Positions 13,960 to 47,275 are shown, counted from the first letter of the stretch. The stretch is 64,000 nucleotides of DNA from Schmidtea nova (GCA_044892505.1 CM097883.1:204414001-204478000), one strand, 5' to 3'. Made by a program: numbers and translations. Notes: generated from the letters alone by a model not told the origin.

Positions 13960-16900
13960 CGGGGCCGGGTGGTGGGTTTTTGCCGCCCTAGGCAAAACGC
14001 AAATTTGCCGCCCTATAGCCTATATGTAAAGTTCATTTTGGATTGTTAAAATCACTGTGCGTTCATCTTTCATGTTTCTCTTAATATTTGTTGTTGTAAT
14101 TATCTTTTCATGGTCAGAGAATGTGTGCGATGTAATTGTTGAAATACTAGCAAACCGTACAGACAATAGTTCAATCAGAAAAGAATGGAATGCGCCTTAT
14201 TTTTATTGAGGCAAATTCCCGAGCAAGTTCGCCGATTTCCACCTTAGAAGCCATTTCTTTCTCAATGGAGAGAATAGCCAAGTCCGATAAACGATCTTCT
14301 GCCATTGTAGATCGCAAGTAATTCTTTATTATTTTCAGTTTTGAGAAGCTGGATTCTCCTGCTGCAACAAATACTGGGAGAGTAAGCATGATGCGCAAAG
14401 CCAGAGACAAATTTGGTAATACACTGCACAGTTGATTAGTACAGATAACTACAAGCAACTGCTTTGGTGTTTTTCTCTCTTGAATCCGACGTTGTAGGCA
14501 TTTTATTTCTTCAAAAAGACGGAGGGCATCAATGTCTTTGTCACTGTCGTCAGTCAGAGCTTTTTCTAATGATCGGCATTTTTCAAGAAGGGTGGCGGAC
14601 TGATAGTCTCCTCCAATACAACTGAGAAACCCAAACACTGTGTGATGAGCATTCAAGAGCGTGAAGCGCTCTTCCAAAGAGTTGATAGCAGCGTCTAACA
14701 CCACGAAGAAAAACTGACACTTGAACGACTGTCTGGGATCTGATATTTGATCATTAGCCGCTTCATACTGAAACATTCGTTTTTTCGTACGAGCCCGAAA
14801 TTGCGTCACAGCAGGAAATGTTGGGTCTATCTCCAGATCTTTTGCTAAGCCTTCTGCCTCTTCAAGAGTTTTGAGAAAGCTGTCGTCAGAGCGATAGTTT
14901 ACGAGATATTGAATGGTTTTATTCAGCTGAGTGACAGCTTCGGACATGTCGACAGATTGAGATTGAAGCAGTTTATTCGCAAAGTTGACCTCGTAAAGGA
15001 TGATATACCAAACGACCACACTAACAACAAATTTGAAGCAACGCAGCTGAAATGCAATTCCTTGAGCATCTGCACGAGTTTGTGCGCCAGTCACTCCAGT
15101 TAGGGTCGTATCTTCGATAATAGAAACAAGGGCATCATAGACTTCTCCAATTTGATAACGTAAAACACGAACGGCATTTACTCTACTTGACCACCTCGTT
15201 TCACTGAGAAGTTTGATAGTTAAACCCGACACATTGTTTTTGAGAACCTTACAGCGATGTGTGGACGCAGAAATAAACACATACACCGCCTGTACGACTC
15301 CAAAACATTTGACAGCTTCTGTGCAGGAATGTGCAGCATCGTTGACGACGAGGTTCAGTGAATGAGCAGTGCAAGGGATATAAAATGCTTGAAGATTTAA
15401 ATCAAGAATTTTCTTCTGCACGCCATTATGCTTTCCTTTCATGTTAGAGCCGTTGTCGTAACCTTGCCCTCTGAGATTAGTCAAAACTAAGCCCATTTCC
15501 TCGATCTTCTTCACAATTAAATTCGTCATTCCAGCTCCAGTTGTTTTAGATGCGACCTCATATTGCAGAAAATGTTCGTGAACAGCAACATTCACAACAC
15601 GTTCTTCTTGAGCTTCACACAAGGACACAAATCGAATCACTAAAGTTATTTGTTCAACATGACTAACGTTTGGTGTACAATCAAAGATTATTGAGAAGTA
15701 TAATGCATTTTTGGCTTCACTAAGAATTTCATCTCTCACCTTTTTTGCCAACAATCCAATGATTTCATTTTGAATATTTTTGCCCGCATAGTGCACATGA
15801 ATTTCCTCACTTTTGATGCGCCGGATGTGTTCTTTCATTACAGGATCAAAGCTTCCTAAGTATTCAACAAATTGAAGAAAGTTACCATTGTTGGGTTTAA
15901 AAAGCTTATCGGACGAACCTCAAAATGCTAAGTTTTGAACTGCGTGTACTCTAATGAGTCCGATGAGTCTTTTCAATACTTGTCTCCTGTGTTCGACTTC
16001 TTGTTTTACGACTCGCTGAATTGGCTGCATCAATAGTATTTTCTGGACGCAAACGAACTTTTAACTCCTTCCATTGCATATAAGTTTTATGTAAGTTGGA
16101 GACACTTCATGACTTGAGAGAATAACGGACATATTTTTCCAATCACAACAACCACTGCTTGTTAATGCCACCGATTCTTTCGTGAAGAGTTTACATGAGA
16201 AACAGAATACGACGTTCTAACTTTTCGAATAAACTAGCCAAGAACGTGTCACACTTTCTCCATTCACAAGATTTCGTTTGTAGTGATGGGAACTAAATTT
16301 CCTTCCTTTATCATCTAGTGGAAATTGTGCGTCCATGATTTGTCATGAACCTCTTTTCACCAAATGAATTCTTAACGCATCGTTGAAGGCGAACTACTGG
16401 GATGGATCCTCAATATCGGCTTCTTGATGGTCGTCTGTAATATAAAAACAATAAAATGATATACAACATTCTACATAGATCATATTATAGGGACCACTTA
16501 CCTTGTGGATGATTAGCAATCTTCTCCTCAACAGTCAAATGGCATTGCGAAGAGAGAGTGTCATTTTTTTGTATGTTCCAAGAATGATAATGGATCAATG
16601 GGTGCTGATGTATCATCTTCTGTGGGTTGTTTTATTTCAGCAAACTATCCTTCATCCGCAATAAGCTTGTTGGATTTTTTGAAAATTGTATTAATTTTAC
16701 GTAACTTGGATATCTCGAGTTCTTGTTTCCTTTTCTTTTCGTCTGCCAAATTCTTGTAACCTGATCCACTTAATCTCTTTCTTCCGTCATTCATGAGATA
16801 CGAAGTATGTAGGTAGTAAATAGTCTACAGACGGTACAAAATGACAGGATGAAGCGAGGTACATTGAACAATTCACGACTGAAAATGTATTATATCTCAC

Positions 16901-20495: not shown

Positions 20496-20898
20496 TAATT
20501 AATATATTCGTCGTTGACTCATACCGTTTCCCCTCTCAAAATATTAATTTTTTCACTTAAATTAATTTTTATTAAGTTTTACTATTTATTTAAGCTAAAA
20601 CTTTTGCATTTGAATTATGCATTTTTATTTGTGCATTTTTGTGCATCCATCTGCAACAATGATGTTTTAAAAAATTGAATTTTTTATGTATTTCGTAATA
20701 TTAATTGGTTTTTTAAGTTGTAAAAAATATAAAAATTTTCAAACTAAAAGATCCAGTTAAATTTCATTTATTCCCATTTGAATAGAAAGTTAGTTTGCAA
20801 CAAATTATTCGTCAACAACAATATCTGATAATGAGGGGGTCCTCAGTAATGCCAACTGGACCCGTCTCATGAATAATGCAACGTTCATAAATTATAAT

Positions 20899-21663
20899 TG
20901 TAGTGGTCCGGAAGGCCGATAACCAAGATTCGTTCAAAGCAGTAAAAGAACATAGCCTGCCTCAAACTTTCACTCTATTCAGTATTATTGAATTTTCAAC
21001 AAGTCATTTTAATGACGAAGAAAAAAATAAACTCCAAAAAAATAACAATCTGAGTTAAAAAAAATAACTGTGGTCAAACTGTAAAACTTTCATTTTTAAT
21101 TTTGGCATTTACATTTATTTTTACATTAATTAACTTTAACTTGGAGTTTGTTTTAATATTCTGGCAGAATTTATATTTTGTTTCTAAAGTTTGAAACGTT
21201 TAACATTGTTTAAAATAAATATTTTCAAAAAGTGGACTACTAGTTTTTGATAATTGAAAATGCGTTATTCTATTGTTAAAATTTTAATTGTTCTACAAAT
21301 TTTAACACTCCATATTTTGCAAATGTGTCACAGTAATATTGTTGGATGTGGTGGTTTCGTTAAAACAGATATCATTGGATTTGCTTATCATAAATTATCA
21401 GCACAATTAATGTTTTCGGACGGAACTCTAAATTATGTGACTGATGTCCTTCCAAATGGAGCGCATTCTATTCCTATATATGATTTCGGTTTCTATGTTA
21501 CCAAAATTATGAGTCCTGACGGTTGGAATATTGAACCAACTGATGGCTACGTTATAAACATTAATAGCCAAGATTCTTGTCCAGATGACTATAATTTTCA
21601 TTTCGCTGGTTTTACCGTACTTGGTAAAGTATCAACAGCTAATATTGAAACAGGTCCACTAAA
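20899..21663 (+). repeat. 5' LTR
   Basis: TGTAGTGG...CCACTAAA, direct repeat of 27590-28354. Confidence 0.95.
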
Positions 21664-24031
21664 AATGGTGTCAGAGGAAAACCAATCTCCAATTCAAGAT
21701 GGAAATCAAACATTTCGTCCCCAAGTCTCACAACATCCAGCAACAATGAATAATTCATTTCAATTAAACTCATCTAATTCTAATAATGCAAGTACGCTTA
21801 GTCAAATTGAAGTCGTTAAGCGAATTGCAGCTGCAATGCAACCACCACCACCTCCGATGCATTTAAGCAATCGACAAAATCAACCGTCAATTCCTATAAT
21901 TCCAACCCCATTGCAAGTAAATCAAGACTCTCAAATTCCATTAGACTGTGCGCAATTAATAAGGATTCCAACCAGTTCACAAGACTCAGCTACTAACATT
22001 CGACAGGCTTTACATTTAATACAACAGAATTTAATCTTACAAAGTGATAAATCCAAGCAAGCTAACAATCATATATCAGATGCTAGCAACTCTATAGCCC
22101 CTAATCAGTCTTTAATCGTCAACAATTCAACGAATAGTAGTCTGTCAGCAATAACAATAAGTTCATCTCCAGTCTCTCCACAGAATCAAAATTCTACTGT
22201 TCTTTCTATGATTAACGTCGACGTTCAAATATTAGAAGAGATAAATCGATCGATTCCTCAGCAGAATCCAAAACCAGTAAATTCAACGCCAGTAAATCCC
22301 AATTTTTCTCTTATTCAAACGGATCCCAAAGTCGCTCAACAATTGACAAATGACTTTCAAAAGCAGTTTCTTTGCACACCGCTAGGTGCTAAGCCACAGG
22401 GATACAATTCAATTGGTCAAACATCGGAAGCAACACAAATCAACATGAAAAATTGCAATAACATCAAATCTATCGTAAATTTTTCACCAGCCCCATCGAA
22501 TATGAACTTAAACACCAACAACGATATCAATAATTCGCTATTAAAAGCTCCATCAAATTCAAAAGTCACAGGAACTCCAATATTAACAGATTTTCTTCTC
22601 TTTTCGGAACAGAAGATCAGCCCCCATTATCGCTGTGGAGTTACGTTAGCATATTTTATTATTATATTAAATTTCTATTATTATATATTATTATTTATAT
22701 CATTATTATTAAAATCATTATTATTAAAATTAACGGAGCCGCCCAATCTTCCGAATTTTAGTCTACGTCGCATATCCTATAGGTTTTTGTCAATATTCGT
22801 AAGGGTTTCCTCCTTCACATTTCACTTTAAACTAGCCCAGGACACGACTATATCAAAACTATCTACATTAATTTGCAAGCGCTTGTCGTACGAGGGACCG
22901 ACATACATATCTTATAATGGCGCAATATTAAGGAATCAGGACTCACTTTTAAGTTCTGACATATGTTCGGATTCTTTGCTGTTCTGTCATGTACCATTGT
23001 ATGGCGGCGCACCATCAAGTATAGACGATGACAACGAATACGACGATAAAAAGCCCAAACCTTTGCCTAAAAAGCAAAGAAATGTTCGAGGCGCTGCTTC
23101 TTCCGACAGTAACTCTAGACAAAATATTAATTGTCCGTTCTTTTTAGATGAGAACCAATCACCATCAACTTGGTTACTCACACTCGAAGCCCTTTTAGAA
23201 AGTTGCGGCGTTACTTCTTCAAGAGATAAATTCTATAGAATATTATCTCTCATCCCACAGGAACATTTAGGCCGCCTTTCTGCCGTTATTCGCCGCACAA
23301 CGCAAAAAACCTTTTTAACCCCTTTTGAGGAGCTCAGCACAGGACTGCTGGATTTATTTAAAGTCCCCAAACAGGAAATATTCTCAAAATATTTCAAAGC
23401 CCAATCTTTAGGAAGTTGTAAGCCGACAGAATTTTTGCAGAAGGCTTTTACAGACCTCGAACAAATGCAAAATGGGACAGCACCCGACCAAAACATGCTA
23501 CGCCAGTTCTTTTTAAGTGTACTTCCGACACACACACAACAGATACTTGCTTTATCGTCTCCGGTAGATATACACGAATTAGCAAAAATGGCGGACAAAA
23601 ATCATGAAATTGTTCCGTTAGGTGGTAAACCAGGCTCATCTGTCAATAGCCTTCCTATCGCAAGCCCGCCGATCCCATCATCAACAGAAAATGCTCTTCT
23701 TTGCGCCATTCGCGACCTTACTGATCGTATTTCGCATTTGGAACGTCATAAATCTCCGTCTCGAAATGCATCACTTTCCAATGCGTTTGACCGAAGACGT
23801 TCCAAATCCCCGGCTTATTCAAACATTTGCTTTTATCATACCAAATATGGGACGAAAGCAAATTGTTGCAACATAGGATGTGGCTGGCGAAACAAAGCAG
23901 CTACCCTAAAAATCATTGATAAGTGCATTTATCACGCACGATTTGGGGATAAAGCAAACAAATGCATCGTAGGTTGCAAATCCTACAATTCCCCACCATC
24001 TTCTCCAAACAACATTCAAAAAAACTTGTAA
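21260..24031 (+). CDS. ORF1: NOMO N-terminal fragment / Q-N-S-P-rich linker / hydrophobic segment / ubiquitin-like domain / Gag. A native start is probably the ATG at 21665.
   Basis: Single open frame, first ATG at 21260. Gag core W..TLEALL...LRQFFLSVLP..TQQILA...ELAKMADK plus two C-x2-H-type knuckles (CFYHTKYGTKANCC, CIYHARFGDKANKC). Confidence 0.88.
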   Translation: MRYSIVKILIVLQILTLHILQMCHSNIVGCGGFVKTDIIGFAYHKLSAQLMFSDGTLNYVTDVLPNGAHSIPIYDFGFYVTKIMSPDGWNIEPTDGYVININSQDSCPDDYNFHFAGFTVLGKVSTANIETGPLKMVSEENQSPIQDGNQTFRPQVSQHPATMNNSFQLNSSNSNNASTLSQIEVVKRIAAAMQPPPPPMHLSNRQNQPSIPIIPTPLQVNQDSQIPLDCAQLIRIPTSSQDSATNIRQALHLIQQNLILQSDKSKQANNHISDASNSIAPNQSLIVNNSTNSSLSAITISSSPVSPQNQNSTVLSMINVDVQILEEINRSIPQQNPKPVNSTPVNPNFSLIQTDPKVAQQLTNDFQKQFLCTPLGAKPQGYNSIGQTSEATQINMKNCNNIKSIVNFSPAPSNMNLNTNNDINNSLLKAPSNSKVTGTPILTDFLLFSEQKISPHYRCGVTLAYFIIILNFYYYILLFISLLLKSLLLKLTEPPNLPNFSLRRISYRFLSIFVRVSSFTFHFKLAQDTTISKLSTLICKRLSYEGPTYISYNGAILRNQDSLLSSDICSDSLLFCHVPLYGGAPSSIDDDNEYDDKKPKPLPKKQRNVRGAASSDSNSRQNINCPFFLDENQSPSTWLLTLEALLESCGVTSSRDKFYRILSLIPQEHLGRLSAVIRRTTQKTFLTPFEELSTGLLDLFKVPKQEIFSKYFKAQSLGSCKPTEFLQKAFTDLEQMQNGTAPDQNMLRQFFLSVLPTHTQQILALSSPVDIHELAKMADKNHEIVPLGGKPGSSVNSLPIASPPIPSSTENALLCAIRDLTDRISHLERHKSPSRNASLSNAFDRRRSKSPAYSNICFYHTKYGTKANCCNIGCGWRNKAATLKIIDKCIYHARFGDKANKCIVGCKSYNSPPSSPNNIQKNL
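21666..21677 (+). promoter_or_regulatory. Primer binding site, probably tRNA-Leu
   Basis: TGGTGTCAGAGG lies 2 nt after the 5' LTR and is complementary to a ...CTGACACCA tRNA-Leu-type 3' end. It overlaps the ATG at 21665. Confidence 0.8.
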
Positions 24032-27000
24032 TGCCATCACTCATTGCGGCTGAAGTTGATGGCAAATTACCTCCTGCACTCGATTTATTTCTAGTGAGAG
24101 CTGAATCCCCTTCTTTCAGCGTTGCTCCGAACTTTTGCAGTACTCTCGATTTTCTTGTTGACACAGGATCCAGCCTCTCCATTCTTCCTTTACAATATGA
24201 ATCTCTTTGCGATGATTCCGTTTATACCTTGAAAGCCGCCAACGGAACCATGGTAAATACACACGGTTCTTTTTCAGCAAATTTCGTTCTTCCTTCTTTA
24301 AATCAATCTTTTATATGGAAGTTCTGTGTCGCTGACGTTATCCATCCCATTCTTGGCTCAGACTTTTTGAGTTCACACAATTTGTTGGTCGATTGTCGTT
24401 CACGCCTTTTGAGAACACATTCGCACACAAATTCGTCTTTAATCATTGACACAAAAAAACTCAACATTTCCGACTCATCTGACGTTTCTGTATCTACTGC
24501 CATTCAACCCATTCATCCAAAGATTGCTACAGACATTTTAAATAAATACACATTTTCACAAACAATGCCTTTACGAAAGCAAGTCTCTGTAACATCTTAC
24601 TGCCATACTATCAACACCACAAACTCTCTTCCGGTACGTTGTAAAGTACGCCCTCTTTCGAACGAAAAACTAGATTTTGTTCGCTCCGAATTCGCTACTT
24701 TGTTGAACGAAGGCATTATAAAAAGATCTAAATCTCCATGGTCTTCACCACTTCATCTCGTACCAAAGAAAGACGGAACTTTCAGACCTTGTGGAGATTA
24801 TCGTCGTTTAAATATGATTACGGTTCACGACTCATATTCTATGCCTTTAGTAAACGACATTTTGTACAGACTTACCGAGGCCAAAATATTTTCAACTATC
24901 GACTTAGTTAAGGCCTATCACCAAATCCCAGTTAAAGAATCTGACGTGGAAAAAACCGCAGTTTTAACACCTATCGGACTTTTTGAGTACGTTTTCATGC
25001 CGTTTGGCCTTAGAAATTCCGCTCAAACCTTTCAAAGACACATCGACCATATTTTAATGGATTTACCATTCGCAATTCCTTATATTGACGATATCCTTAT
25101 TGGTTCTAAGGATGCGGAAACACACAAAAAACATTTAGATGCAGTTCTTTGCGCACTTTCTTCCAATAACCTACAAATTAATTTAGATAAGTGTTTATTT
25201 TTTAAAGAAGAAGTCCGTTTTTTAGGTCACATTATCTCGGGTCAAGGCGTCAGTCCACCATCCGACAGACTAGATACTATATCTAAGTTTCCTCTTCCAC
25301 AAACTGTTACTCAACTTCGGAGTTTTCTGGGAACAGTAAACTATTGCCACCGTTTTATTCCTAAAATTTCAGAAATTCTTTCACCTCTTTCTGGTTACTG
25401 TTCTAAACCAAAGAAATCTATAATTCCTTGGAACGATACTTCGTTGCTCGCTTTTGAGCATGCCAAAACAGCCCTTTCAAACATACAGACTTTGCATTAT
25501 CCACGAGGAGATTTGCCATTACGTTTAACCACAGACGCGTCAAACATAGCAATCGGTGCCGTTTTGCACCAGATAAACGGTTACATCCCAGAGCCACTAG
25601 AATTTTACTCAAAGAAACTTACCTCACCACAACAAAAATATTCAGCTTTCGACCGCGAACTTCTCGCTATTTACCAGTCGGTTAAACATTTTAAGCATTT
25701 ACTCGAGGGCCGTCTTTTTAGCATCCATACAGACCACAAGCCACTTGTTTACTTGTTCTCAATGAAAGACCCTTCTCCGAGACAACAACGCCAGATTAGC
25801 TATATTAGCGAATTTTCTTGCCAAATATACCACATCGCCGGCAGTGATAACATTATAGCTGATTGCCTTTCACGAAATGTAAACGCAATTATCCACTGTC
25901 CTTTATTTTCTATCGACGAACTCCAAAATAATCCTCCAGACGCCATTGATATTTCGAAATTTGGCGACAAACACATAATCAAAGACAAAATTCACTACGA
26001 CTCATCTCTTCCTGGCACTCTTCGCCCAATCTTGAATGACTCCATGAGAAAACTGGCTTTTCTCTCTGTCCACAACACGCACCACCCAGGTTCCTCAGCC
26101 ACTTTTAATCTATTACACACGTGTGTAGTTTGGCCAAACATGAGACATGATGTTAAACTCTGGGTTGCACAATGCATAGGATGCCAACGTTTTAAGATAA
26201 CTAAGCACACTAAACCTCCAATAATTCATTATCCCACTGGCAACCGTTTCGAAAACTTACACATTGACATCGTCGGCCCAGTCCCAAGTGACTGCGGTTT
26301 CTCTTACTTATTAACCATGATCGACCGCAAGACTCGTTGGTTCGAAGTCATTCCTTTACGCACCATTTCTTCTAACACTATCGCAACTTCGCTAATTCAA
26401 AATTGGATTTCACGATATGGAGTTCCCAAGTCGATCATCAGTGATCGCGGAACACAGTTTGAATCTAACTTATTTCAAGCTTTGACCGCTAAACTTGGGA
26501 TACAACATCTTCGTACGACCACATATCATCCACAAACAAACGGGTTAGTCGAACGTTTCCATCGTACTTTAAAAGCTTCTCTTGGCATTCTTTCTGAACA
26601 ACAAGGTTGGACAAAGGTTTTACCTTTCGTATTATTAGGTTGGCGAAATACACCTTCTAGGACTACAGGATCATCACCTGCTCAATTACTTTTCGGTACA
26701 AACACATCGTTACCCGGTCAACTTGTCGACTTTGATAACTCTCCTACTTTGGAAGATCTCGCGATTGCTAGAGACCATTTTTTATCAATCGACACTAATC
26801 CTGAATTCTCTTCCTCGACCACCTATAAACCTTACATTCCAAAAACATTCGAAAATGCATCACACGTCTATATTAGAAATATAACTGATGCAAGTTTAAA
26901 GCCAAGATATTCCGGACCTTACAAGCTCGTCGAGATTAAAGAAAACAACGCGAAAGTGATCGTTAACGACGCTACACAAACATTTAACCTCTGCCGTCTT

Positions 27001-27372
27001 AAACCAGCTTTAGTTTTGCTCGATGATGAACCTTCACCTGACAATCTCTCGACCCAAACCGATATAATCTCGAACTCTCACACAAACGATAATGACCCTA
27101 TCAATTCCACTGAGGACGATCTTTCCAACAACTCACCTTCATACCCGATTGTTCAAACATCAAACGCAGAAAACAAAATGACGGAAAAATCTGAATACAT
27201 ACCGTTTATCCCAGAACCGAATGACGTACTTCGTTTACCACCCATTTTGAGGAAAGCAAAGCAAACACAAAATAAACCAAAGTCCGTCACTTACAACAAA
27301 TGGGTTCGTGTCCGTTCTATTAATCAAAAACCGGATTCACCAACTAGACTAATAAGAATCTATTCAAATTAA
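23962..27372 (+). CDS. pol: Pol (protease-RT-RNase H-integrase), in the -1 frame relative to ORF1
   Basis: FLVDTGSS protease, YIDDILI RT, TTDASNIAIGAVL RNase H, HIDIVGP / SDRGTQF / GLVERFHRTLK integrase, GPY motif; no internal stops. Confidence 0.97.
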   Translation: MHRRLQILQFPTIFSKQHSKKLVMPSLIAAEVDGKLPPALDLFLVRAESPSFSVAPNFCSTLDFLVDTGSSLSILPLQYESLCDDSVYTLKAANGTMVNTHGSFSANFVLPSLNQSFIWKFCVADVIHPILGSDFLSSHNLLVDCRSRLLRTHSHTNSSLIIDTKKLNISDSSDVSVSTAIQPIHPKIATDILNKYTFSQTMPLRKQVSVTSYCHTINTTNSLPVRCKVRPLSNEKLDFVRSEFATLLNEGIIKRSKSPWSSPLHLVPKKDGTFRPCGDYRRLNMITVHDSYSMPLVNDILYRLTEAKIFSTIDLVKAYHQIPVKESDVEKTAVLTPIGLFEYVFMPFGLRNSAQTFQRHIDHILMDLPFAIPYIDDILIGSKDAETHKKHLDAVLCALSSNNLQINLDKCLFFKEEVRFLGHIISGQGVSPPSDRLDTISKFPLPQTVTQLRSFLGTVNYCHRFIPKISEILSPLSGYCSKPKKSIIPWNDTSLLAFEHAKTALSNIQTLHYPRGDLPLRLTTDASNIAIGAVLHQINGYIPEPLEFYSKKLTSPQQKYSAFDRELLAIYQSVKHFKHLLEGRLFSIHTDHKPLVYLFSMKDPSPRQQRQISYISEFSCQIYHIAGSDNIIADCLSRNVNAIIHCPLFSIDELQNNPPDAIDISKFGDKHIIKDKIHYDSSLPGTLRPILNDSMRKLAFLSVHNTHHPGSSATFNLLHTCVVWPNMRHDVKLWVAQCIGCQRFKITKHTKPPIIHYPTGNRFENLHIDIVGPVPSDCGFSYLLTMIDRKTRWFEVIPLRTISSNTIATSLIQNWISRYGVPKSIISDRGTQFESNLFQALTAKLGIQHLRTTTYHPQTNGLVERFHRTLKASLGILSEQQGWTKVLPFVLLGWRNTPSRTTGSSPAQLLFGTNTSLPGQLVDFDNSPTLEDLAIARDHFLSIDTNPEFSSSTTYKPYIPKTFENASHVYIRNITDASLKPRYSGPYKLVEIKENNAKVIVNDATQTFNLCRLKPALVLLDDEPSPDNLSTQTDIISNSHTNDNDPINSTEDDLSNNSPSYPIVQTSNAENKMTEKSEYIPFIPEPNDVLRLPPILRKAKQTQNKPKSVTYNKWVRVRSINQKPDSPTRLIRIYSN
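24019..24025 (+). promoter_or_regulatory. -1 ribosomal frameshift slippery heptamer A AAA AAC
   Basis: Sits in correct ORF1 codon phase one codon before the ORF1 stop; Pol is in the -1 frame. Confidence 0.8.
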
Positions 27373-27589
27373 TTGCACCACTGTCCACCAAGTTCTATTA
27401 GTTTTTTTTTTTTCGGTTTCCTAAATTTCTTTCGCAATTCTTTCTCAGGTTATTCCATGTCATTCACGACTCTTTCCAAATACTTTCTGGACACTACAAA
27501 ATACCATATTATTATATACTAAACTACTATATTACGTATCTACATTATAGTATTTCAAAATGTGCTCCACATCTTCCGATGAGGGCTGA

Positions 27590-28354
27590 TGTAGTGGTCC
27601 GGAAGGCCGATAACCAAGATTCGTTCAAAGCAGTAAAAGAACATAGCCTGCCTCAAACTTTCACTCTATTCAGTATTATTGAATTTTCAACAAGTCATTT
27701 TAATGACGAAGAAAAAAATAAACTCCAAAAAAATAACAATCTGAGTTAAAAAAAATAACTGTGGTCAAACTGTAAAATTTTCATTTTTAATTTTGGCATT
27801 TACATTTATTTTTACATTAATTAACTTTAACTTGGAGTTTGTTTTAATATTCTGGCAGAATTTATATTTTGTTTCTAAAGTTTGAAACGTTTAACATTGT
27901 TTAAAATAAATATTTTCAAAAAGTGGACTACTAGTTTTTGATAATTGAAAATGCGTTATTCTATTGTTAAAATTTTAATTGTTCTACAAATTTTAACACT
28001 CCATATTTTGCAAATGTGTCACAGTAATATTGTTGGATGTGGTGGTTTCGTTAAAACAGATATCATTGGATTTGCTTATCATAAATTATCAGCACAATTA
28101 ATGTTTTCGGACGGAACTCTAAATTATGTGACTGATGTCCTTCCAAATGGAGCGCATTCTATTCCTATATATGATTTCGGTTTCTATGTTACCAAAATTA
28201 TGAGTCCTGACGGTTGGAATATTGAACCAACTGATGGCTACGTTATAAACATTAATAGCCAAGATTCTTGTCCAGATGACTATAATTTTCATTTCGCTGG
28301 TTTTACCGTACTTGGTAAAGTATCAACAGCTAATATTGAAACAGGTCCACTAAA
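27590..28354 (+). repeat. 3' LTR
   Basis: Direct repeat of 20899-21663, preceded by purine-rich GAGGGCTGA and followed by the TSD. Confidence 0.95.
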
Positions 28355-28358
28355 ATAA
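27945..28358 (+). pseudogene. NOMO: Captured NOMO (nodal modulator) N-terminal fragment in the 3' LTR; same copy at 21260-21663
   Basis: Signal-peptide-like MRYSIVKILIVLQILTLHIL, then IVGCGGFVK...GTLNYVTD..PNG...IPIYD.G...P.GW..EP...C...NF.F.GFTV.GKV, which matches the recalled NOMO1 N-terminus. The stop is supplied by the flanking TSD. Confidence 0.85.
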
Positions 28359-29204
28359 TGAACACAGATATCCAAGTTGCGTCAACTCCGTCACTAACGC
28401 AGTCGGTGAATCTATCAAATATAAATTTATTGAAGGTGACAACTAAGAATATATTATGTAACAAATCATGACATAACTATATGAAATTAAAAAGTTAATA
28501 TCTTTTACGGAACTCATTTTATTGATGCCACCTAGCAATTGCATTTGGATAATAATAATTATTATTTAGATAACAATAATTTATTTGCGACCCATTGAAT
28601 AAGTCAAGCATAAATGTGCACAAATTTTCTGTAAACTTTAAACATGGAAATCACACAACATTTTGTAATTATTTACAAATATAATTTGTAGAAATTTATC
28701 AAAATAATAAATTTTTGAATTTTGTAATGCCAATTCCATTCTATTAATGGTAATTTATTTCATTTATGGAAATCAATTGAAAAAATGAAAGTCAATTATT
28801 ATTAAATTTGGATATTTTAATCCCTTTTTATTGAATAATAATATTATTACACTTTTTATTGAATTTTTATCGACTTCATATATATTCCTATTGATCATTT
28901 CTAAATTTTAAAATTATTTAAAATCGAAATTCACAAAACTAGGTAAAAATGAACTTTGAAACATTCTAAATTTTTTATATGAAAAATTTGTTTCTTAATA
29001 TAGAAAAATATCAACGAAACGAATGAAAATAAATAAAAATAATCGAAAAAAATCGTGTTTAGCGACGAAAAAAATTCCAAAAATGGCTCATTTGTCAAAA
29101 TATGGATTTTTGCATTTGAAATATTCGGTTGGCAGCGAGTGAGTCACGGAGAAATCGATAAATTGCATTTTTGAATTTCATTTTCATTAGTTGTCATTTG
29201 CTAA

Positions 29205-29299
29205 CCAATCGCAGCTCTCAATCACAACCAATTGCTGATCAAATATCTGCCAATCAAATCACACGAAAATCAATAAAATTTAATCCTTTTGATCTTGAA
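29205..29299 (+). promoter_or_regulatory. Putative cdc25 promoter: three CCAAT boxes plus a CHR-like CTTGAA
   Basis: CCAAT at 29205, 29228 and 29250; CTTGAA at 29294; mirrored in the inverted copy. Multiple CCAAT plus CHR is typical of animal G2/M genes. Confidence 0.45.
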
Positions 29300-29410
29300 A
29301 GACCCCATGAAAAATACGGCAATTTTAATGAGTTCATCAGTTCAAAGAATTGCAAAATTCAAAACAATTCGGTAGGTTTTATAATCCTTCTGTGACTATA
29401 TTATCGGACT

Positions 29411-30676
29411 ATGAAGATTCAGCAAAATCCGTCAAGATCTGGTGACGTTTCTAACGATAATAATTCTTTGGATTCTGGTTTCGATACTGAGCATAGTCAA
29501 GATGACATTCTCTCCTTCGTGCTGGAAAACAACGAGGAGAATATTCGGTCAAATCTCTCACAGACTTCACAAAGGATTCCAATATTTCAAGTAAAATTGA
29601 CTAATTTTATTCATGATGAAACTTATGTTAATTTATAGATGGATGTATTATCGGACCCAGTAACGGACTGTTCGGATTCCACAGAATATTTACTGCCAGT
29701 CACAACGGAGACCACTCGTCATCTATTTATTCCTCAAATATCCACATCGACATTGGCTAAGCTGATTTCTGGCAATCATATCCTCGATAACCCCGTTGAA
29801 ATATTTGATTGTCGCTACCCTTATGAATATTCCGCTGGCCACATTGTCCATTCGAGAAATGCTTACAATAAGCAAGTGCTCCTTCAAATGTTGTTTCCGA
29901 TATCCGAATCAACAGTCAATCAACATCCAACGGATGTTACATTAAGGAAAACTTTGAAAAGAGATGACACGATTTATATATTCTATTGTGAATACAGCAG
30001 CTACCGGGCCCCTGGATTGTGAGTTCTCATTTATATTGNNNNNNNNNNNNNNNNNNNNNNNNNNNNNNNNNNNNNNNNNNNNNNNNNNNNNNNNNNNNNN
30101 NNNNNNNNNNNNNNNNNNNNNNNNNNNNNNNNNNNNNNNNNNNNNNNNNNNNNNNNNNNNNNNNNNNNNNNNNNNNNNNNNNNNNNNNNNNNNNNNNNNN
30201 NNNNNNNNNNNNNNNNNNNNNNNNNNNNNNNNNNNNNNNNNNNNNNNNNNNNNNNNNNNNNNNNNNNNNNNNNNNNNNNNNNNNNNNNGCATTCGAGAAT
30301 TAGATCGGATAGTAAATGGTTACAATCGAGATTTATTTTTCCCAAATATTTATATTCTCAACGGAGGCTATCGGGAATTTTTCAATAATTATCCTGTAAA
30401 TTTGTATACTTATTTAATTGTTGAATGACGAATTGTATTTAGATATTGTGCTGTCCTCAAGGGTACATGAGCATGGATCTGTTCCTCTGCATTATAGACA
30501 ATAATCGCATGTACACCAAGGACTGTTCAATGCTAGATGAGCAAAATATGAAAAGGAAATACCACAATCAAAATGTAGAATTAACAAACAAATATAAAGT
30601 AGCAATTACCAAATCGTCGAGAATCAGCGACATTCTGTCTTTATTTGCATCGCATCCTAAAATCAGAAACAAATAG
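29411..30676 (+). CDS. cdc25: Cdc25 M-phase inducer phosphatase, copy A (spliced: 29411-29590, 29639-30018, exon 3 emerging from the gap to 30395, 30443-30676)
   Basis: IFDCRYPYEYSAGHI, catalytic CX5R in FYCEYSSYRAP, IRELDR...YILNGGYREFF. GT-AG introns of 48 and 47 nt; intron 2 contains an N gap. Confidence 0.92.
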
Positions 30677-32959
30677 AAAAAAATTCGTATTTTTACCATC
30701 TGAATTGGTCTGTGATATTTCTATGATCTCTATTTTGATCTCATTCTTGATGGAAACATCGAAATTAATTTTTTAATAAACTTTCCTTTTAATAATTTTC
30801 TTCATTAGTCTTTCATTTTTTGATATCTACCCAGAGTCCTGCTCGTGAAATGCTCAGAAGAGGATTTCCATGTCTCGGTAAGGGTTATATTTGTTTTATT
30901 TTGCCGCACATATATGGTTTCGAGACTTTTCCAGCTCCGTGATTCTTATTTTCTATATTAATTGCTCCAGTTATACCTTAATTGCAAGGGTGAATCACAC
31001 AAGAATACGTTTAAATCATTTCAATTCGACATCCAATGTTTCTCCTAACGAGCGTAATTGCTCAAGAATATTTTTAAAATATTAATAATAATATCGAAGA
31101 ACAAGCATTGATATCAGGAATTCCAAAAATGCTTCTTGATTCTTAATTTATTTACTGCACTCTCTTTCAACAGCATGTATATAATTAATTTGAAATACTG
31201 AAAATAAATTTTTAAAATTTTTCAGTCAAAATTTAGCGAAATTGTGACGTAATTTTATGTCAAAACAATAATTTAATATCACTTTATATCAGCAATTTTA
31301 ACGGTGGCAAGGAGATTTTTTAAAGCTGTTGGGGTTATCATTTTTGGTGCAAAAAAAAAGTTACAAGAACGGAAAATATAAAATTTAGCAATTCAAAAAA
31401 GAGCAAAATTAATTTTTAATTTTGCTCTATTTTGAATTGCTAAATTTTATATTTTCCGTAAAAATTAAAAATAAATTCTTTGAGGAGGAAACGGGTATGA
31501 GCGGAAGACAAATTGTGAAACGAAAACGAAATCGAAAATTATAAAAAGATTAATGGGATCCGAGGAAAAGTTTTTTACAAATACAAATTAATTAAGAAAA
31601 TAAATCAATTTAATTAAAAATAATATGAAAATCCCGAGCTATAACAAAAAAGCCTAATCAATTTTTTAATTAAAACCTGGCAATTGATCAACAAAAATAT
31701 TGGGGTCGTGTTTAAATAAGAACGAAATAAAATAAAAAGCACTAAATCTATGTGCAAAAGAACACAAAAAATTTTAAAATTATTAGTTACTAAAATTTAT
31801 TAAAATTTTAAAAAATTTTAAAAAATAAAGATTTAGCTGGGGAAACTGGTATGGGAGAATGCCAAATGATGAGACAAATTCAAATATGGTAATTTAAAAT
31901 TAAAAATGGGCCCCAGAAAGAAAATTTAGAAAAATATTAAAAAATAGAAATTAACTACCTAGTGGAAAGCAAGATCTGTTTAGGAAACAAAATTGTTAAA
32001 ATACTAGGGGAAATTGAAGGATCTAGCAGAAGCATGGGTGAGAAGCGCTTAAACTTTTTAAAAGCCATAACAAAATCAATTAGTAAAAAACCCAGTGAGA
32101 TTAGAGGACCCAAGTGGTAAGGAGAAGCAGGATGAATCACAAACACACTTTAAGACCAAAATGAAGCAAGAAGCGCTGACGAGTAATACAATTAAGTAGG
32201 AGATTTACTCAATTAAGGAAGCAATATAAAAAGAGATGAGTCTTAAATGTTTGCACTAGATTGTTGAAACACGATATTTGAATTGAAAATTTCGATAAAG
32301 ATTGTCTAAAAAGAAAAAGGGACCAAGAATTTGTGTCAACTCAATTGTTTGAGTACCAGATAGGGTGATCTCCCATTGGAACACTTGAAGAGGGCAGATC
32401 CCTGTGTAACTTGTGTAGTGAAATTTGATAATAAAGATTACTGTGTTTGGTTTTTGTTAATTTGTTTCTAAAGAAAAGAAACAAGAAGTCAAGCAGTATC
32501 CAACTTTTTAATAATAACTCAATAAAGATAAGGCCTGGTGGCAGCAGGATGATAATTAGATTAGGTTTCTGCTTAATTTGCATAATTTGCACTCCAAATT
32601 AGAGAGAGAGCCCAATTTTTATTTTGCATTAAAATTTGTATATAAAATCTTTACATTTTTTAAAATTTTATATTTTTTTATTTTAATGTTTATTATAAAT
32701 AAAGTTTTATAAATTATTAATAAATGTTACTTTATGTGAGGCCCGCCAAAAAATTTTAAAATTTAAATTGGCCCATTGATTAAAAAGTTTGCTCACCCCT
32801 GGTTTAAATGAACCTTGCTTTACCAAAATTGTTCTTTCGGAATCTTCTAAATTTATTGGCTACAATGCTGTGGTTAAAGTTTATAGAGCTTAGTCCGTAG
32901 GTGTAGAATTAGTGTCAATGTTAATAGTTTTTTAATTTGGCGGCGGACTTATGCCCGTT

Positions 32960-34354: not shown

Positions 34355-35977
34355 GGACAGAAACAATAAATACGAAATGTAAATTTCATGGTGATCTAAA
34401 AAAAGTATCACTTTCGATTAAATGGGTAAATTCGATTAATAAAGATTTGCCGCCCGCACAAATGTCCGTTTTGTCCGGCACGTAGAAGGGTCACCTAAAT
34501 AGAAATATATTAGTGAACAATGTACTTTTTTTCATTGCGCCCTTCATTTTAAAATGGTTAACCAATTCTGTTTTAAAGCTTATGCTGAATTCCACGAATT
34601 CAAAAAGAATGTTAAATAAAGGAAACTACCAAAAACTATAATTGACATTCTGTTTGATCATATATTTAATACATTCACTCAATTATTTTGCTGAACAAAT
34701 TAAAATTAATAAAATAAATTAAAAATATAAATAAAAATGAGCCAATTAGAGCAGAATATTTTATTAATACAAAAATTAAAACTGTTACTTACTTAATTTT
34801 GTCGCCTATCATTGTTGTTTGGTTAAATTTATTAGTAAAATTTATCCAGGTCAATGCAGCTCGTAATCAGCATCTTCTAATTCATCCTCCTTAAGCCTCT
34901 TTCAAAATCAGCACTCGATATTTGAAAGGTTCCACAAATATCAAGTAAAACTTTTACTTTTAAAGCTTTCTTTGAAAAGAACCAATTAAAGAAAATCATT
35001 GAAAATTATAAATAATATTTTTTAATTTTTCCCGAAAATAATTATTTATATCATTATTTATATCGCTCGTTACTATTTTGCTATTTATGTTAAGGATGAG
35101 ATAATTTATATTTTTGTTGGGTTGTTTATTTTAAGTCAGTTTATTATCTGACTCCTCGTGCTCCCAGAATTGAAAAATCACCAAAACCTAACACAATAAA
35201 TTTTATTGAATTCCACCAATTTACAAATAATAAATAAATAAATCAATCAATCAATACAATTTCCATTTCCCCCTCTATTCTGGTAGGCTTCACGCTTCTT
35301 GACTTGCTAATGCTGGGTTCTGCACTCACTTAGTCCTAGTTACCAAATGCGTGTTTACTGCTCGACAAATATTTGGCTTCACTAAATTTATTTTTATAGT
35401 TTTTCAGTTATGAAAACAACGCAATTAAATTTCCTGAAATGGAAAAACAATGGAATTTTTTCCTGTGTTTTAATTCAATTTTCGGTCTGTAAATCCGGTA
35501 ATCTAATTTGATATCGGGTTTTCCTCTTGCGCGGGTTTTTTATTAGTCTAGGTTTTACATTGACCCAGCCGTCCTAAAAACGTTGCATGTAGCTGGAAAC
35601 CTTTTAATATTAACTGGCATAATGTCACATTGAAATGATTTAAACGTATTCTTGTGTGATTCACCCTTGCAATTATGGAATAACTGGAGCAATTAATATA
35701 GAAAATAAGAATCATGGAGCTGGAAAAGTCTTGAAACCATATATGTGCGGCAAAATAAAACAAATATAACCCATACCGAGACATGGAAATCCTATTCTGA
35801 GCATTTCACGAGCAGGACTCTGGGTAGATATCAAAAAATGAAAGACTAATGAAGAAAATTATTAAAAGGAAAGTTTATTAAAAAATTAATTTCGATGTTT
35901 CCATCGAGAATAAGATCAAAATAGAGATCATAGAAATATCACAGACCAATTCAGATGATAAAAATATGAATATTTTT

Positions 35978-37594
35978 CTATTTGTTTCTGATTTTAGGAT
36001 GCGATGCAAATAAAGTCAGAATGTCGCTAATTCTCGACGATTTGGTAATTGCTACTTTATATTTGTTTGTTAATTCTACATTTTGATTGTGGTATTTCCT
36101 TTTCATATTTTGCTCAACTAGCATTGAACAGTCCTTGGTGTACATGCGATTATTGTCTATAACGCAGAGGAACAGATCCATGCTCATGTACCCTTGAGGA
36201 CAACACAATATCTAAATACAATTTGTCATTCAACAATTAAATAAGTATACAAATTTACAGGATAATTATAGAAAAATTCCCGATAGCCTCCGTTGAGAAT
36301 ATAAATATTTGGGAAAAATAAATCTCGATTGTAACCATTTACTATCCGATCTAATTCTCGAATGCANNNNNNNNNNNNNNNNNNNNNNNNNNNNNNNNNN
36401 NNNNNNNNNNNNNNNNNNNNNNNNNNNNNNNNNNNNNNNNNNNNNNNNNNNNNNNNNNNNNNNNNNNNNNNNNNNNNNNNNNNNNNNNNNNNNNNNNNNN
36501 NNNNNNNNNNNNNNNNNNNNNNNNNNNNNNNNNNNNNNNNNNNNNNNNNNNNNNNNNNNNNNNNNNNNNNNNNNNNNNNNNNNNNNNNNNNNNNNNNNNN
36601 NNNNNNNACCTTTGATCTTTTTTTATTATTATTATCAATAATTCTCATAATGACTATAGATCAAAAATTTTTTTTATAAACAATAACACAATATTTCGGC
36701 ACAGCCTTTATCAAGTGTGTATTTCTAATAATAATAGAAATACACACTTGATAAAAACTGTGCCGAAATATTGTGTTATTGTTTATAAAAAAATTTTTGA
36801 TCTATAGTNNNNNNNNNNNNNNNNNNNNNNNNNNNNNNNNNNNNNNNNNNNNNNNNNNNNNNNNNNNNNNNNNNNNNNNNNNNNNNNNNNNNNNNNNNNN
36901 NNNNNNNNNNNNNNNNNNNNNNNNNNNNNNNNNNNNNNNNNNNNNNNNNNNNNNNNNNNNNNNNTGCAATATAAATGAGAACTCACAATCCAGGGGCCCG
37001 GTAGCTGCTGTATTCACAATAGAATATATAAATCGTGTCATCTCTTTTCAAAGTTTTCCTTAATGTAACATCCGTTGAATGTTGATTGACTGCTGATTCG
37101 GATATGGGAAACAACATTTGAAGGAGCACTTGCTTATTGTAAGCATTTCTCGAATGGACAATGTGGCCAGCGGAATATTCATAAGGGTAGCGACAATCAA
37201 ATATTTCAACGGGGTTATCGAGGATATGATTGCCAGAAATCAGCTTAGCCAATGTCGATGTGGATATTTGAGGAATAAATAGATGACGAGTGGTCTCCGT
37301 TGTGACTGGCAGTAAATATTCTGTGGAATCCGAACAGTCCGTTACTGGGTCCGATAATACATCCATCTATAAATTAACATAAGTTTCATCATGAATAAAA
37401 TTAGTCAATTTTACTTGAAATATTGGAATCCTTTGTGAAGTCTGTGAGAGATTTGACCGAATATTCTCCTCGTTGTTTTCCAGCACGAAGGAGAGAATGT
37501 CATCTTGACTATGCTCAGTATCGAAACCAGAATCCAAAGAATTATTATCGTTAGAAACGTCACCAGATCTTGACGGATTTTGCTGAATCTTCAT
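35978..37594 (-). CDS. cdc25: Cdc25 phosphatase, copy B (inverted, same exon structure)
   Basis: Near-identical reverse complement of copy A, with six amino-acid differences visible. Intron 2 contains gaps and a foldback repeat. Confidence 0.9.
36608..36808. repeat. AT-rich foldback (palindromic) repeat in cdc25-B intron 2
   Basis: Arms ACTATAGATCAAAAA...CACAATATTTCGGCACAG..TTTATCAAGTGTGTA are inverted around a short spacer; same family as 60971-61188 and ~56520-56665. Confidence 0.85.
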
Positions 37595-38911
37595 AGTCCG
37601 ATAATATAGTCACAGAAGGATTATAAAACCTACCGAATTGTTTTGAATTTTGCAATTCTTTGAACTGATGAACTCATTAAAATTGCCGTATTTTTCATGG
37701 GGTCTTTCAAGATCAAAAGGATTAAATTTTATTGATTTTCGTGTGATTTGATTGGCAGATATTTGATCAGCAATTGGTTGTGATTGAGAGCTGCGATTGG
37801 TTAGCAAATGACAACTAATGAAAATGAAATTCAAAAATGCAATTTATCGATTTCTCCGTGACTCACTCGCTGCCAACCGAATATTTCAAATGCAAAAATC
37901 CATATTTTGACAAATGAGCCATTTTTGGAATTTTTTTCGTCGCTAAACACGATTTTTTTCGATTATTTTTATTTATTTTCATTCGTTTCGTTGATATTTT
38001 TCTATATTAAGAAACAAATTTTTCATATAAAAAATTTAGAATGTTTCAAAGTTCATTTTTACCTAGTTTTGTGAATTTCGATTTTAAATAATTTTAAAAT
38101 TTAGAAATGATCAATAGGAATATATATGAAGTCGATAAAAATTCAATAAAAAGTGTAATAATATTATTATTCAATAAAAAGGGATTAAAATATCCAAATT
38201 TAATAATAATTGACTTTCATTTTTTCAATTGATTTCCATAAATGAAATAAATTACCATTAATAGAATGGAATTGGCATTACAAAATTCAAAAATTTATTA
38301 TTTTGATAAATTTCTACAAATTATATTTGTAAATAATTACAAAATGTTGTGTGATTTCCATGTTTAAAGTTTACAGAAAATTTGTGCACATTTATGCTTG
38401 ACTTATTCAATGGGTCGCAAATAAATTATTGTTATCTAAATAATAATTATTATTATCCAAATGCAATTGCTAGGTGGCATCAATAAAATGAGTTCCGTAA
38501 AAGATATTAACTTTTTAATTTCATATAGTTATGTCATGATTTGTTACATAATATATTCTTAGTTGTCACCTTCAATAAATTTATATTTGATAGATTCACC
38601 GACTGCGTTAGTGACGGACTTGACGCAACTTGGATATCTGTGTTCATTATAATTTATGAACGTTGCATTATTCATGAGACTGGTCCAGTTGGCATTACTG
38701 AGGACCCCTCATTATCAGATATTGTTGTTGACGAATAATTTGTTGCAAACTAATTTTCTATTCAAATGGAAATAAATGAAATTTAACTGTATCTTTTAGT
38801 TTGAAATTTTTTATATTATTTTAACAACTTAAAAAACTAATTAACCCATTTCTTCCCAAAATTAAAAATCATGAAGAAATATGCTACTTTGTCATAAATT
38901 TCACTTTAATA

Positions 38912-40367
38912 TACCATTTTCCGGTCAATTTAGTCTTTTTGCCAACCAATTTAGTCCTTTTTAAAATAATTTAGTCTTTTTACCAATCACTTTAGTCCTT
39001 TTATCAAGCAATTTAATCTTTTTACCAATCAATTTAGTCCTTTAATAATATAAATTGAAATTTATAAATTTTATAGCAGTTTAATATAAAAAAACCAACT
39101 ATAAATTTATTGATGAACATACGCCATTCCAGCTGCACAGTTAATAATATTACAAATAATATACCTAAAATACCCAGAACAATCCCTAGAATTTATAGTT
39201 ATTGTTTCTGCCATCATCAGTTCAGATAATGTACCGGTTACACCTTCCCTTAATTTAGATCGAACTCCATTTTTAATTTTAGAAAATGAGTTTTCAATTG
39301 GGTTAAGCATATATGAATAAGGTGATAGGAACTTAAAATCAAATCCAGATTGAGAAGTTATTCTTTTGATATCATCTCTTCGGTGAATACGCGCATTATC
39401 TAAAATTAAACAGGCGTTCTCCATTTCTTTAACATCTCTTAAGTACCTACACAGCTCATTAATATATTCATTAAATATATCCGAATTAACTGTTGAATTA
39501 GTAATGGTTTTACAAAATCCCATTCCGTCAACTGTGAGACAGGCAATTAAAGAAACCGAATGACCCCTGACAGTTGGCATTCTTACTATAGCCCTTGTTC
39601 CTCGCTTAGACCTTCCATATGATCTTTTGAGGTGTAAATTAAAACCGCTCTCATCAATAAAACGGCTTTTGAATAATCATTTTCAAAGTAATTATTGAAC
39701 CATATTGAGTATTGCTTTCGTAGTTCAATTTTATCGGGCATATTTACCCTTTCAAGCTCTCGATGCGTTAATTTTGTCGTGATTTTAAGCTCTTGAAGGC
39801 ACGTATTGATTGTTGAAACGGAAACAGTGCCTGTTTTGCGATTCAATTTGAAGAGCCCTTTTGATTTCATTTAACGTAAATTGAGAATTGAATGTAACTA
39901 TATTCTCAATTTCGTTGATAATTTCAGGTGTTAGTATCTTTTTTTGACTTCCACCTTTATTTTTCAACTCTGTCTTGCCTGTTTTTTCGTAGTTTTTTAA
40001 TATAGTTTTTGCTGATCTATAATTAATTTCTAATAATGAAGAGGCCTCTTTAATGTTCTGCCCTTGATCATTAACTAAACGTATTAAACTTAGTCTTTTT
40101 TTCATTTGAAATAGAATTGTTTTTTCCAGAGCTGTTCCTATTTCTAGTACTATGATTAATTCTGTCTTCACCGTTATTATTCATTAAATAGGGTATTAAA
40201 AATTTTTTTAAATCCTTGAAAAGCGCTGTAAATTAATGATTCTAAATAAATAAAGTATAAAATATTTATTAATTCGAAAATGACTATATTGACTGAAAAA
40301 AGACTAAATTGCTTGATAAAAGGACTAAATTGATTGGTAAAAAGACTAAATTGACCGAAAAATGGTA
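38912..40367 (-). mobile_element. Tc1/IS630-like DD34E element with frameshifted transposase (ORF pieces 39785-40171, 39586-39870, 39107-39580)
   Basis: TA TSDs; TIRs TACCATTTT(C/T)CGGTCAATTTAGTC with tandem AATTTAGTC subterminal repeats; LILDNARIH...LSPYSYMLNPIE has 34 residues between D and E. Confidence 0.92.
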
Positions 40368-40568
40368 TATAATTGAAATATTATTATAAATATTAAAAAT
40401 TAGTATTATTTATTTTCGTTTACACTACGGATATCGTTGCGTTGGCGCTACGTTGGGAGTTTCCTGATAAAAAAATCTTTTGTTTTATTTTTTTGATTAC
40501 TTGCTTTTATTTGCTCAAAATGTGAAAAATGCTGATTTTATGGATGAAACTTCACAAAGGTTATGAAT

Positions 40569-46759: not shown

Positions 46760-47275
46760 TATAGCCGCGATAGCTTGTGATAAAAAATGTTTGAAATAAA
46801 GCTCGATTCAACGTTTATTCTTTATTACAAGATTCTTTTACAAATTCTGTTTCTCTTTGAAAATCACTCGATATAAACAAATCTATTTTCTTTTAAATTG
46901 ATTATCTAAAATAAATTAATTATCACACACTTTCTTAAAATTTGGAAAGGAAAATGATTGTTTTACTGTTTTATCTGCTATGAAAATACATTTAAAACTT
47001 TTTTCAAAGAAATCTATTAACCAAAAGGGTAAGATTGCTGTTTTATCTAATATTAATTGAAGTAAACATTTTGAATATTACAGTTAAAAATAATCAAAAT
47101 CATATATTTATGGTAAAATGTTAGAACAATTCATTGAAAACTTTTATTTTGTCCTGTAGTAAATCATGTATGATTTTCTAAGTGAGATATATAATAGTCT
47201 TTTATATTGAACTAAATAGTTCATTCTTCATTCATTACCTTTACTTTATAATTTTAGACAGAATCCTATTAACGG

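Follow-up and report, generated by a model that had tools for sequence, protein, structure and literature searches.

Structure of the element

The stretch of Schmidtea nova DNA considered here, which we call the window, is 64,000 nucleotides long, and all coordinates below refer to the whole of it. It comes from an AT-rich genome of 1.25 Gb with spliceosomal introns (G000), and contains a Ty3/gypsy long terminal repeat (LTR) retrotransposon of 7.5 kb, whose LTRs, target-site duplication, primer binding site (PBS) as well as polypurine tract are all found. Its open reading frame 1 (ORF1) is a single frame of 923 amino acids (21260-24031) that begins inside the 5' LTR, in a piece of a host gene, and ends with Gag. 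We argue that this piece is one of several interchangeable host leaders, and that ORF1 probably encodes a membrane precursor from which a host enzyme would free Gag. The features of the element are:

20894-20898, +: left target-site duplication ATAAT (right copy at 28355-28359)
20899-21663, +: 5' LTR, 765 bp, TGTAGTGG...CCACTAAA, with one mismatch to the 3' LTR
21216-21648, +: captured 5' end of host NOMO, in the LTR: about 45 nt of 5' untranslated region and about 130 codons
21260-21334, +: host-derived start codon and predicted signal peptide, amino acids 1 to about 25 (hydropathy; N-terminus the same as in host NOMO)
21353-21601, +: NOMO1-like first beta-sandwich, amino acids 32-114 (PF22898, E 6e-14), interchangeable cargo
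21665-21677, +: in-frame ATG (Met136) overlapping the PBS, TGGTGTCAGAGG
21665-22639, +: linker rich in N, S, Q and P, predicted lumenal; frame conserved, residues near neutral
22646-22711, +: predicted transmembrane (TM) helix, amino acids 463-484, with K/R residues after it (hydropathy, sequence)
22784-23008, +: ubiquitin-like domain (Ubl) ending LYGG; its diglycine (GG), amino acids 582-583, is the predicted cleavage site
23009-24031, +: Gag, comprising a capsid region (DUF7041) and a pair of CHCC fingers (about 23828-23881; about 23924-23977)
24019-24025, +: slippery site A AAA AAC, where a -1 frameshift into pol is predicted; 48 of the 52 copies counted have an identical junction
23953-27372, +: open pol frame with protease (recognised by its DTG motif only), reverse transcriptase (RT), RNase H and integrase
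27578-27589, +: polypurine tract, GATGAGGGCTGA
27590-28354, +: 3' LTR, repeating the NOMO leader frame (27945-28358), which stops at the LTR end

The near-identical LTRs, the target-site duplication, the PBS and polypurine tract, and an empty site (a single ATAAT) that survives near 38650 in the inverted duplicate arm of the flank together indicate that the insertion is recent and complete. The LTR termini are TG...AA, instead of TG...CA. Unlike env-bearing errantiviruses, it has no env frame 3' of pol, where about 220 bp separate the pol stop from the 3' LTR. The closest solved RT to that of the window is the RT of Ty3 (E 3e-90); Gag matches DUF7041 at amino acids 633-701 (Pfam, E 3e-4) and contains two copies of the CHCC signature CX2HX9CX3C. 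By sequence, the element is related in its Gag to the CsRn1 clade, but it departs from that clade's use of a tRNA-Trp PBS: its PBS reads TGGTGTCAGA(G/A)G, which does not match the tRNA-Trp site and looks to be of Leu type. An exact search with a tRNA-Leu end gave no match.

A search with the LTR yields 617 candidates, 40 of which were scored, and a search with Gag yields 138 matches. The copies compared below were picked with a bias to long frames and distinct junctions, and their counts are not frequencies. We refer to the window element and its close copies as family A, and to two other families of the same genome as B and C.

Host leaders in the LTR

Codons 1-134 of ORF1, that is the signal and the NOMO domain, fall within the 5' LTR. 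An earlier note on this sequence had correctly named every part of ORF1 (signal-like N-terminus, NOMO domain, linker, hydrophobic stretch, Ubl and Gag), but overlooked this location. LTR positions 318-750 are identical to the single host NOMO gene (G000:C1, about 200.629 Mb) at 419 of 435 positions (96%). The host frame runs on into NOMO domain 2, while the LTR copy switches at about codon 130 to the terminal CCAC(T/C)AAA; there is a microhomology of 6 nt at this switch point, the one junction read for it.

NOMO is one leader among many: in family A, the same internal frame of linker, TM helix, Ubl and Gag is joined to 10 different host 5' ends. The PBS junctions of the window and of loci L001-L120 comprise 28 NOMO, 16 PCMT, 14 acid phosphatase, 2 RNF103-like and 3 other leaders, and eleven older junctions add tetraspanin-like, leucine-rich-repeat (LRR), claudin-like and Ig-receptor leaders, two of the eleven being without assignment. 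The names NOMO, PCMT, His_Phos_2 (acid phosphatase) and EHN (epoxide hydrolase) correspond to Pfam matches above cut-off, LRR to a match at cut-off, and tetraspanin and claudin to weak ones; RNF103-like has an Atlas lead of 0.89, the Ig-receptor leader (L135) a weak Ig match in its host gene, and L037 is unnamed. The idea that the L037 leader is an LMAN2-like lectin was dropped, the end of L037 being a remnant of the tetraspanin-like junction, and a supposed host tetraspanin gene turned out to be a deleted solo LTR.

The PCMT leader consists of five host exons minus four introns, two of which measure about 45 and about 12 kb; one host intron (GT-AG) is missing from the RNF103-like leader, and one from that of L135. 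The removal of introns in these three leaders implies capture through spliced RNA. Nested replacement is shown by the last bases common to the LRR, long-PCMT and RNF103-like leaders. Mapped onto a tree of the internal regions of 59 copies, the four most frequent leader types require 9 changes where 3 would be the minimum; leaders were therefore swapped between lineages as well. Host 5' ends thus enter the LTR as spliced RNA, and pass from one lineage to another.

Each of the 10 leader types of family A is in frame with the PBS Met. For 9 of them this holds directly; for the epoxide hydrolase leader it holds in 2 of the 4 LTR copies looked at, and the remaining two are decayed. The 4 leaders of family B are likewise in frame with Met136. 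Indels common to at least 2 of the 59 copies are in frame in the linker (8/8) and in the TM segment (3/3), with no shared stops there; private indels include frameshifts (6/11 in the linker, 2/4 in the TM segment), and there are 11 private stops. The whole of ORF1 is open in 15 of 27 NOMO copies, 10 of 16 PCMT copies and 1 of 13 acid phosphatase copies; six of the latter have in common a small deletion at the marker start codon, with a later in-frame Met retained. We infer that the leader is translated from the captured host AUG through the PBS. An intron spanning the AT-rich helix was considered and rejected: downstream of the helix there is a single candidate acceptor AG, and it differs between copies (GAG in 37 or more, GAA in 8, GGG in 2).

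Two side observations concern copies of unusual structure. One is internally deleted (L109, 4436-6979, - strand), with a long PCMT leader in frame directly with RT and both LTRs kept, and three others (L016, L066, L067) are tandem elements with a common LTR.

A predicted membrane precursor

ORF1 of the window is hydrophobic at its N-terminus (KD19 hydropathy of 2.08 at amino acids 5-23) and has a single internal peak of hydropathy (2.39 at amino acids 466-484, from nucleotide 22646). It is predicted to be a type I membrane precursor, with Ubl and Gag in the cytosol. The helix is retained in the local frame in 57 of the 59 copies, with basic residues behind it, and the leaders of family A are hydrophobic at their start in 10 cases out of 10 (maximum KD11 of 2.15-3.45). 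The tetraspanin-like capture includes three hydrophobic segments before it ends, the claudin-like one just its first: given the known topology of those families, these end points would put the linker on the lumenal side there too.

Family B, at 53% Gag identity, offers a contrast. It retains Ubl and Gag, with a fragment of O-GlcNAc transferase (OGT) in place of linker and helix, and has no KD19 peak above 1.55 upstream of Ubl: it is TM-less. Its leaders are PNUTS-like (PDB, E 0.02), unnamed, TECR-like (weak) and of the L164 type, and the first three score just 0.28-0.35 in hydropathy. Secretory or membrane leaders are thus 10 of 10 in family A versus 0 of 4 conserved in family B (Fisher p about 0.001). 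The earlier note, which had proposed the type I topology with cytosolic Ubl and Gag, suggested looking for the helix in relatives: it is kept within family A and absent from family B, and the contrast between leaders lends the topology support.

The lumenal part, in comparison, is loosely constrained. The ratio of non-synonymous to synonymous variation (pN/pS) for variants shared among the 59 copies is 0.77 in the linker, 0.35 in Ubl and 0.19 in Gag. The linker has no Pfam match, and the origin of linker and helix was not found in genome searches, which were saturated by copies of the element. Captured domains are truncated and without purifying selection, with shared non-synonymous to synonymous changes of 18:1 in NOMO, 6:1 in PCMT and 22:8 in acid phosphatase; the NOMO ratio, from 27 copies compared with the host locus L081, has p about 0.07 and is not significant. 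The earlier note estimated about 14 N-x-S/T sequons in the linker; we count 15, for a shuffle mean of 7.7, and a stricter count in a near-identical copy gives 12 versus 6.8. The excess is modest (p 0.01-0.08 across six copies). Control patterns are also frequent in the linker (N-S/T 12, N-x-x-S/T 9), and the excess is attributable to the clustering of N and S; sequon enrichment as a sign of selection was rejected. The ectodomain looks like an interchangeable spacer. Its apparent neutrality weighs against an env-like function, while a generic glycan coat remains compatible with it; the idea of a glycosylated ectodomain standing in for env, put forward in the earlier note, finds little support in a lumenal domain that is freely swapped and shows no amino-acid constraint.

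The ubiquitin-like domain and its diglycine

The Pfam match to the ubiquitin family, at amino acids 512-578, is below cut-off (E 0.0095). An AlphaFold model of Ubl has a beta-grasp fold, with block pLDDT of 78-97 and root-mean-square deviations of 1.1-3.5 Å from ubiquitin, SUMO and ISG15, and a profile built from 33 relatives, chosen for having an upstream region, retrieves ubiquitin with single-domain E of about 1e-12 to 1e-14. In the alignment, LLGG faces LRGG of ubiquitin, so that GG is in ubiquitin's C-terminal register. Families A, B and C all have the diglycine, and the residue that follows it is Ala in each.

A full HMMER search over 1.84 billion representatives gives 27 matches below 1e-30. 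Among the 150 matches listed, 34 double-finger proteins have 60 or more upstream residues, and in 28 of these xxGG precedes Gag, a count free of the selection applied to the profile; the figure for other matches is 8 of 35. One relative, P0021, has a near-true ubiquitin ending LRLRGG, and in several relatives fragments of host origin stand in front (histone H2A, 5'-nucleotidase and cohesin SCC3). A word-index protein search returned no relatives for full-length ORF1 and two distant Gags for the Ubl-Gag part, and a metagenome scan found 3 loci among 207 pattern matches, too short to reveal an LTR leader. To judge from these comparisons, the Ubl-GG-Gag module marks a broad clade, and a host deubiquitinase (DUB) likely frees Gag by cutting after GG; release by DUB cleavage, one of the suggestions of the earlier note, thus gains support from the conservation of GG among relatives.

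Five distant relatives (P0013, P0014, P0017, L167, L168) share a hydrophobic stretch and a Cys motif upstream of Ubl, and are possibly an independent membrane-anchored lineage; P0013 begins with a signal-like segment.

Proposed mechanism and alternatives

The reading that we favour, with a probability of about 0.62, is that the LTR carries a swappable host mRNA 5' end and directs the synthesis of a type I precursor in the endoplasmic reticulum (ER), from which a host DUB likely frees Gag and Gag-Pol after GG. New leaders would be acquired by template switching during minus-strand strong-stop synthesis, with just the final 10-30 nt of the previous LTR end retained. Translation would start at the captured host AUG and cross the PBS, as the conservation of frame suggests; the signal would start translocation, the helix would halt it, and Ubl and Gag would fold in the cytosol. 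Cleavage at GG would give Gag a constant N-terminus regardless of the sequence upstream, which is why any cargo could be tolerated. A signal with no stop-transfer helix downstream carries the domains that follow into the lumen, away from cytosolic DUBs. The helix would therefore act as a filter on captures: without a signal in the leader it would likely become a signal anchor and send Gag to the lumen, as a leader signal would in TM-less families. When the helix is present, a signal-bearing leader would be needed to keep Gag cytosolic; when it is absent, a signal would be fatal. Finally, ER-bound translation would favour the co-packaging of ER-bound mRNAs, and hence further captures of the same kind.

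Several points weigh against this reading. The contrast in TM helix and signal is between two lineages only, and topology is judged from hydropathy and knowledge of the families. One family-B leader, L164, scores as hydrophobic (2.65), but two other copies do not keep the frame of its upstream ATG; PCMT and claudin-like have the weakest signals among family-A leaders; and mammalian microsomal epoxide hydrolase, which keeps its bulk in the cytosol, would not fit. Junctions L130 and L132 of family A and L166 of family B could not be assigned, and no host gene was located for the acid phosphatase, tetraspanin-like, claudin-like, LRR, epoxide hydrolase or L037 leader, that of acid phosphatase being absent from the 8 candidate loci checked. 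The family-A Ubl has drifted (VPLYGG, Pfam match below cut-off), and its recognition by a DUB is not assured. The DNA of the TM segment is AT-rich and hydrophobic in any frame, as the earlier note had fairly warned in describing it as (TTA)n-like, and its pN/pS of 0.38 comes from 5 variants. The helix may derive from AT-rich DNA, yet it would work as a membrane helix whatever its origin.

The alternative that fares best, although we hold it to be unlikely, is that the stub is baggage: Ubl would be cut early, only the open frame would matter, the helix would be an AT-rich accident with no stop-transfer role, and signal-bearing leaders would be explained by the co-packaging of ER-bound element RNA with ER-bound mRNAs. 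The high linker pN/pS, the lack of purifying selection on NOMO, PCMT and acid phosphatase cargo, the unspecific excess of sequons, and the unrelated cytosolic cargo of families B and C (OGT, SAPS, filamin) are all in its favour. However, a signal makes the helix necessary, since Ubl and Gag would otherwise be lumenal, and it is kept in nearly all copies; moreover, the multi-pass captures stop on the lumenal side.

Two proposals give the membrane a larger role. The broader one, which we regard as doubtful, is that a widespread clade, so far undescribed, uses the ubiquitin cut site to separate Gag from its upstream fusions, making the LTR a self-renewing library of host 5' ends; in this family the library would provide ER targeting and a variable, host-like glycosylated surface for an anchored Gag precursor, with assembly at the membrane and exit in vesicles without env. 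A narrower one, improbable in our estimate, is that cleavage is partial, membrane-anchored Gag assembling at the ER or the plasma membrane, budding in vesicles with a glycosylated, host-looking ectodomain and so spreading from cell to cell without env. The type I architecture, the missing env frame, the fast turnover of host-derived N-terminal domains, the hydrophobic segments upstream of Ubl in P0013, P0014 and P0017, and the existence of env-less infectious retrotransposons (PMC11952523) are consistent with such budding, as is the retention of 12 of 15 sequons in at least 90% of scored copies, but this retention is expected at a copy identity of 96-100%. Against budding, no fusogen-like feature was seen, the ectodomain is without amino-acid constraint, the conserved GG argues for efficient cleavage, and family B, which has no TM helix, is multiplying in that genome too. 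A last alternative, that Gag starts at Met136 or from a spliced RNA and that the LTR leader is untranslated filler, can appeal to the MVSE junction with its ATG at the PBS, common to families A, B and C, and to family C having no long in-frame LTR leader, but it is very improbable, as it has no need for the frame agreement of the 10 family-A and 4 family-B leaders with Met136, and the sole candidate acceptor varies.

Comparison with known systems

The CHCC motif CX2HX9CX3C was defined in CsRn1-like Ty3/gypsy elements (PMC2582038). These elements share with the window element a CHCC finger, a DUF7041 Gag, a gag/pol overlap in the -1 frame and near-identical LTRs; they have one finger rather than two, and the window element adds a Ubl-GG before Gag and an LTR leader read through the PBS.

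Capture of spliced host mRNA, template switching, short microhomology and nested chimeras are also features of LTR-mediated retrocopies (Tan et al. 2016, PMC5131818). In those, the host piece takes the place of internal ORFs and yields a non-autonomous product; in the window family, complete elements carry it in both LTRs, where it provides Gag with a start codon and signal, and it leaves gag and pol open.

A ubiquitin fold ending in GG directly before the protein to be released is also the plan of ubiquitin-fusion precursors. In ubiquitin-ribosomal protein fusions, ubiquitin precedes the protein that is to be freed. Pestiviruses carry ubiquitin insertions ahead of NS3 (PMC2850149). The Ubl of the window family differs in being fixed, diverged and clade-wide in a retrotransposon Gag, with any host cargo upstream, and its cleavage is predicted.

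Ty1 RNA is translated at the ER via the signal recognition particle, possibly nucleating assembly sites (PMC3945221); Ty1 Gag enters the lumen and returns, while in the window family a borrowed signal and a stop-transfer helix would hold Gag in the cytosol. The glyco-Gag of murine leukaemia virus (MLV), which the earlier note offered as a loose analogy, is also an N-terminally extended, membrane-inserted form of Gag. The analogy is poor: glyco-Gag is mostly described as type II with Gag outside (PMC12530543), starts at an upstream CUG, is an accessory form, and has neither Ubl nor host leader, whereas ORF1 of the window has an AUG start and a signal and helix that predict the opposite topology. 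The Burro giant gypsy elements (PMC6431247) also have host-like domains, including Ubi/SUMO motifs, in a gypsy polyprotein; they exceed 30 kb and have an N-terminal Gag, CCHC knuckles and an env-like region, in contrast to the 7.5 kb of the window element, with its cargo ahead of Gag.

Taken one by one, the capture of RNA by LTR elements, Ty1 translation coupled to the ER, ubiquitin insertions in viruses, glyco-Gag and infection without env are all known. We found no description of a Ubl-GG-Gag clade or of LTR-borne host leaders in the literature searched, which left outside its scope subscription papers, Repbase and the supplements of genome papers; nor did we find there the strategy of taking start codon and targeting signal from captured host mRNAs, with a first processing step likely performed by host DUBs. 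The lists of cargo would be a natural record of co-packaged mRNAs and of the place of capsid assembly, so that the assembly site of a retrotransposon, ER or cytosol, could be tested from genomes alone. Intronless host 5' fragments scattered by the family could also affect small-RNA silencing, seed new genes and confuse annotation.

Sister families and neighbouring sequence

The OGT fragment of family B comes in two versions, TPR-rich or with one TPR and the catalytic N-lobe (L024, L027, L033, L034), and L033 has an FG-rich stretch, reminiscent of nucleoporins, ahead of it. Sixteen family-B junctions cluster near a contig end (G000 C2, about 449.3-455.7 Mb), among them L165, with its TECR-like leader. 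Family C (L083, L084, L088), the third Ubl-Gag family, carries pieces of filamin and of SAPS (PP6 regulatory subunit) in the interval from PBS to Ubl. A further family (L139, L142-L146) has the PBS-overlapping ATG (MVSE), with few in-frame codons upstream.

Around the element, window positions 20722-20898 and 28355-31032 form with 35622-38821 a large, near-perfect inverted duplication; the insertion lies in one arm, the empty site in the other. Within the duplication is a rhodanese-domain exon (29639-30022, PF00581, E 3e-8), which is presumably Cdc25-like. The window also contains two hAT transposase remnants (14171-15919 and 61387-63923), a second LTR-type element, with 153-bp repeats (43146-46927), and DDE transposase fragments (39107-41562).

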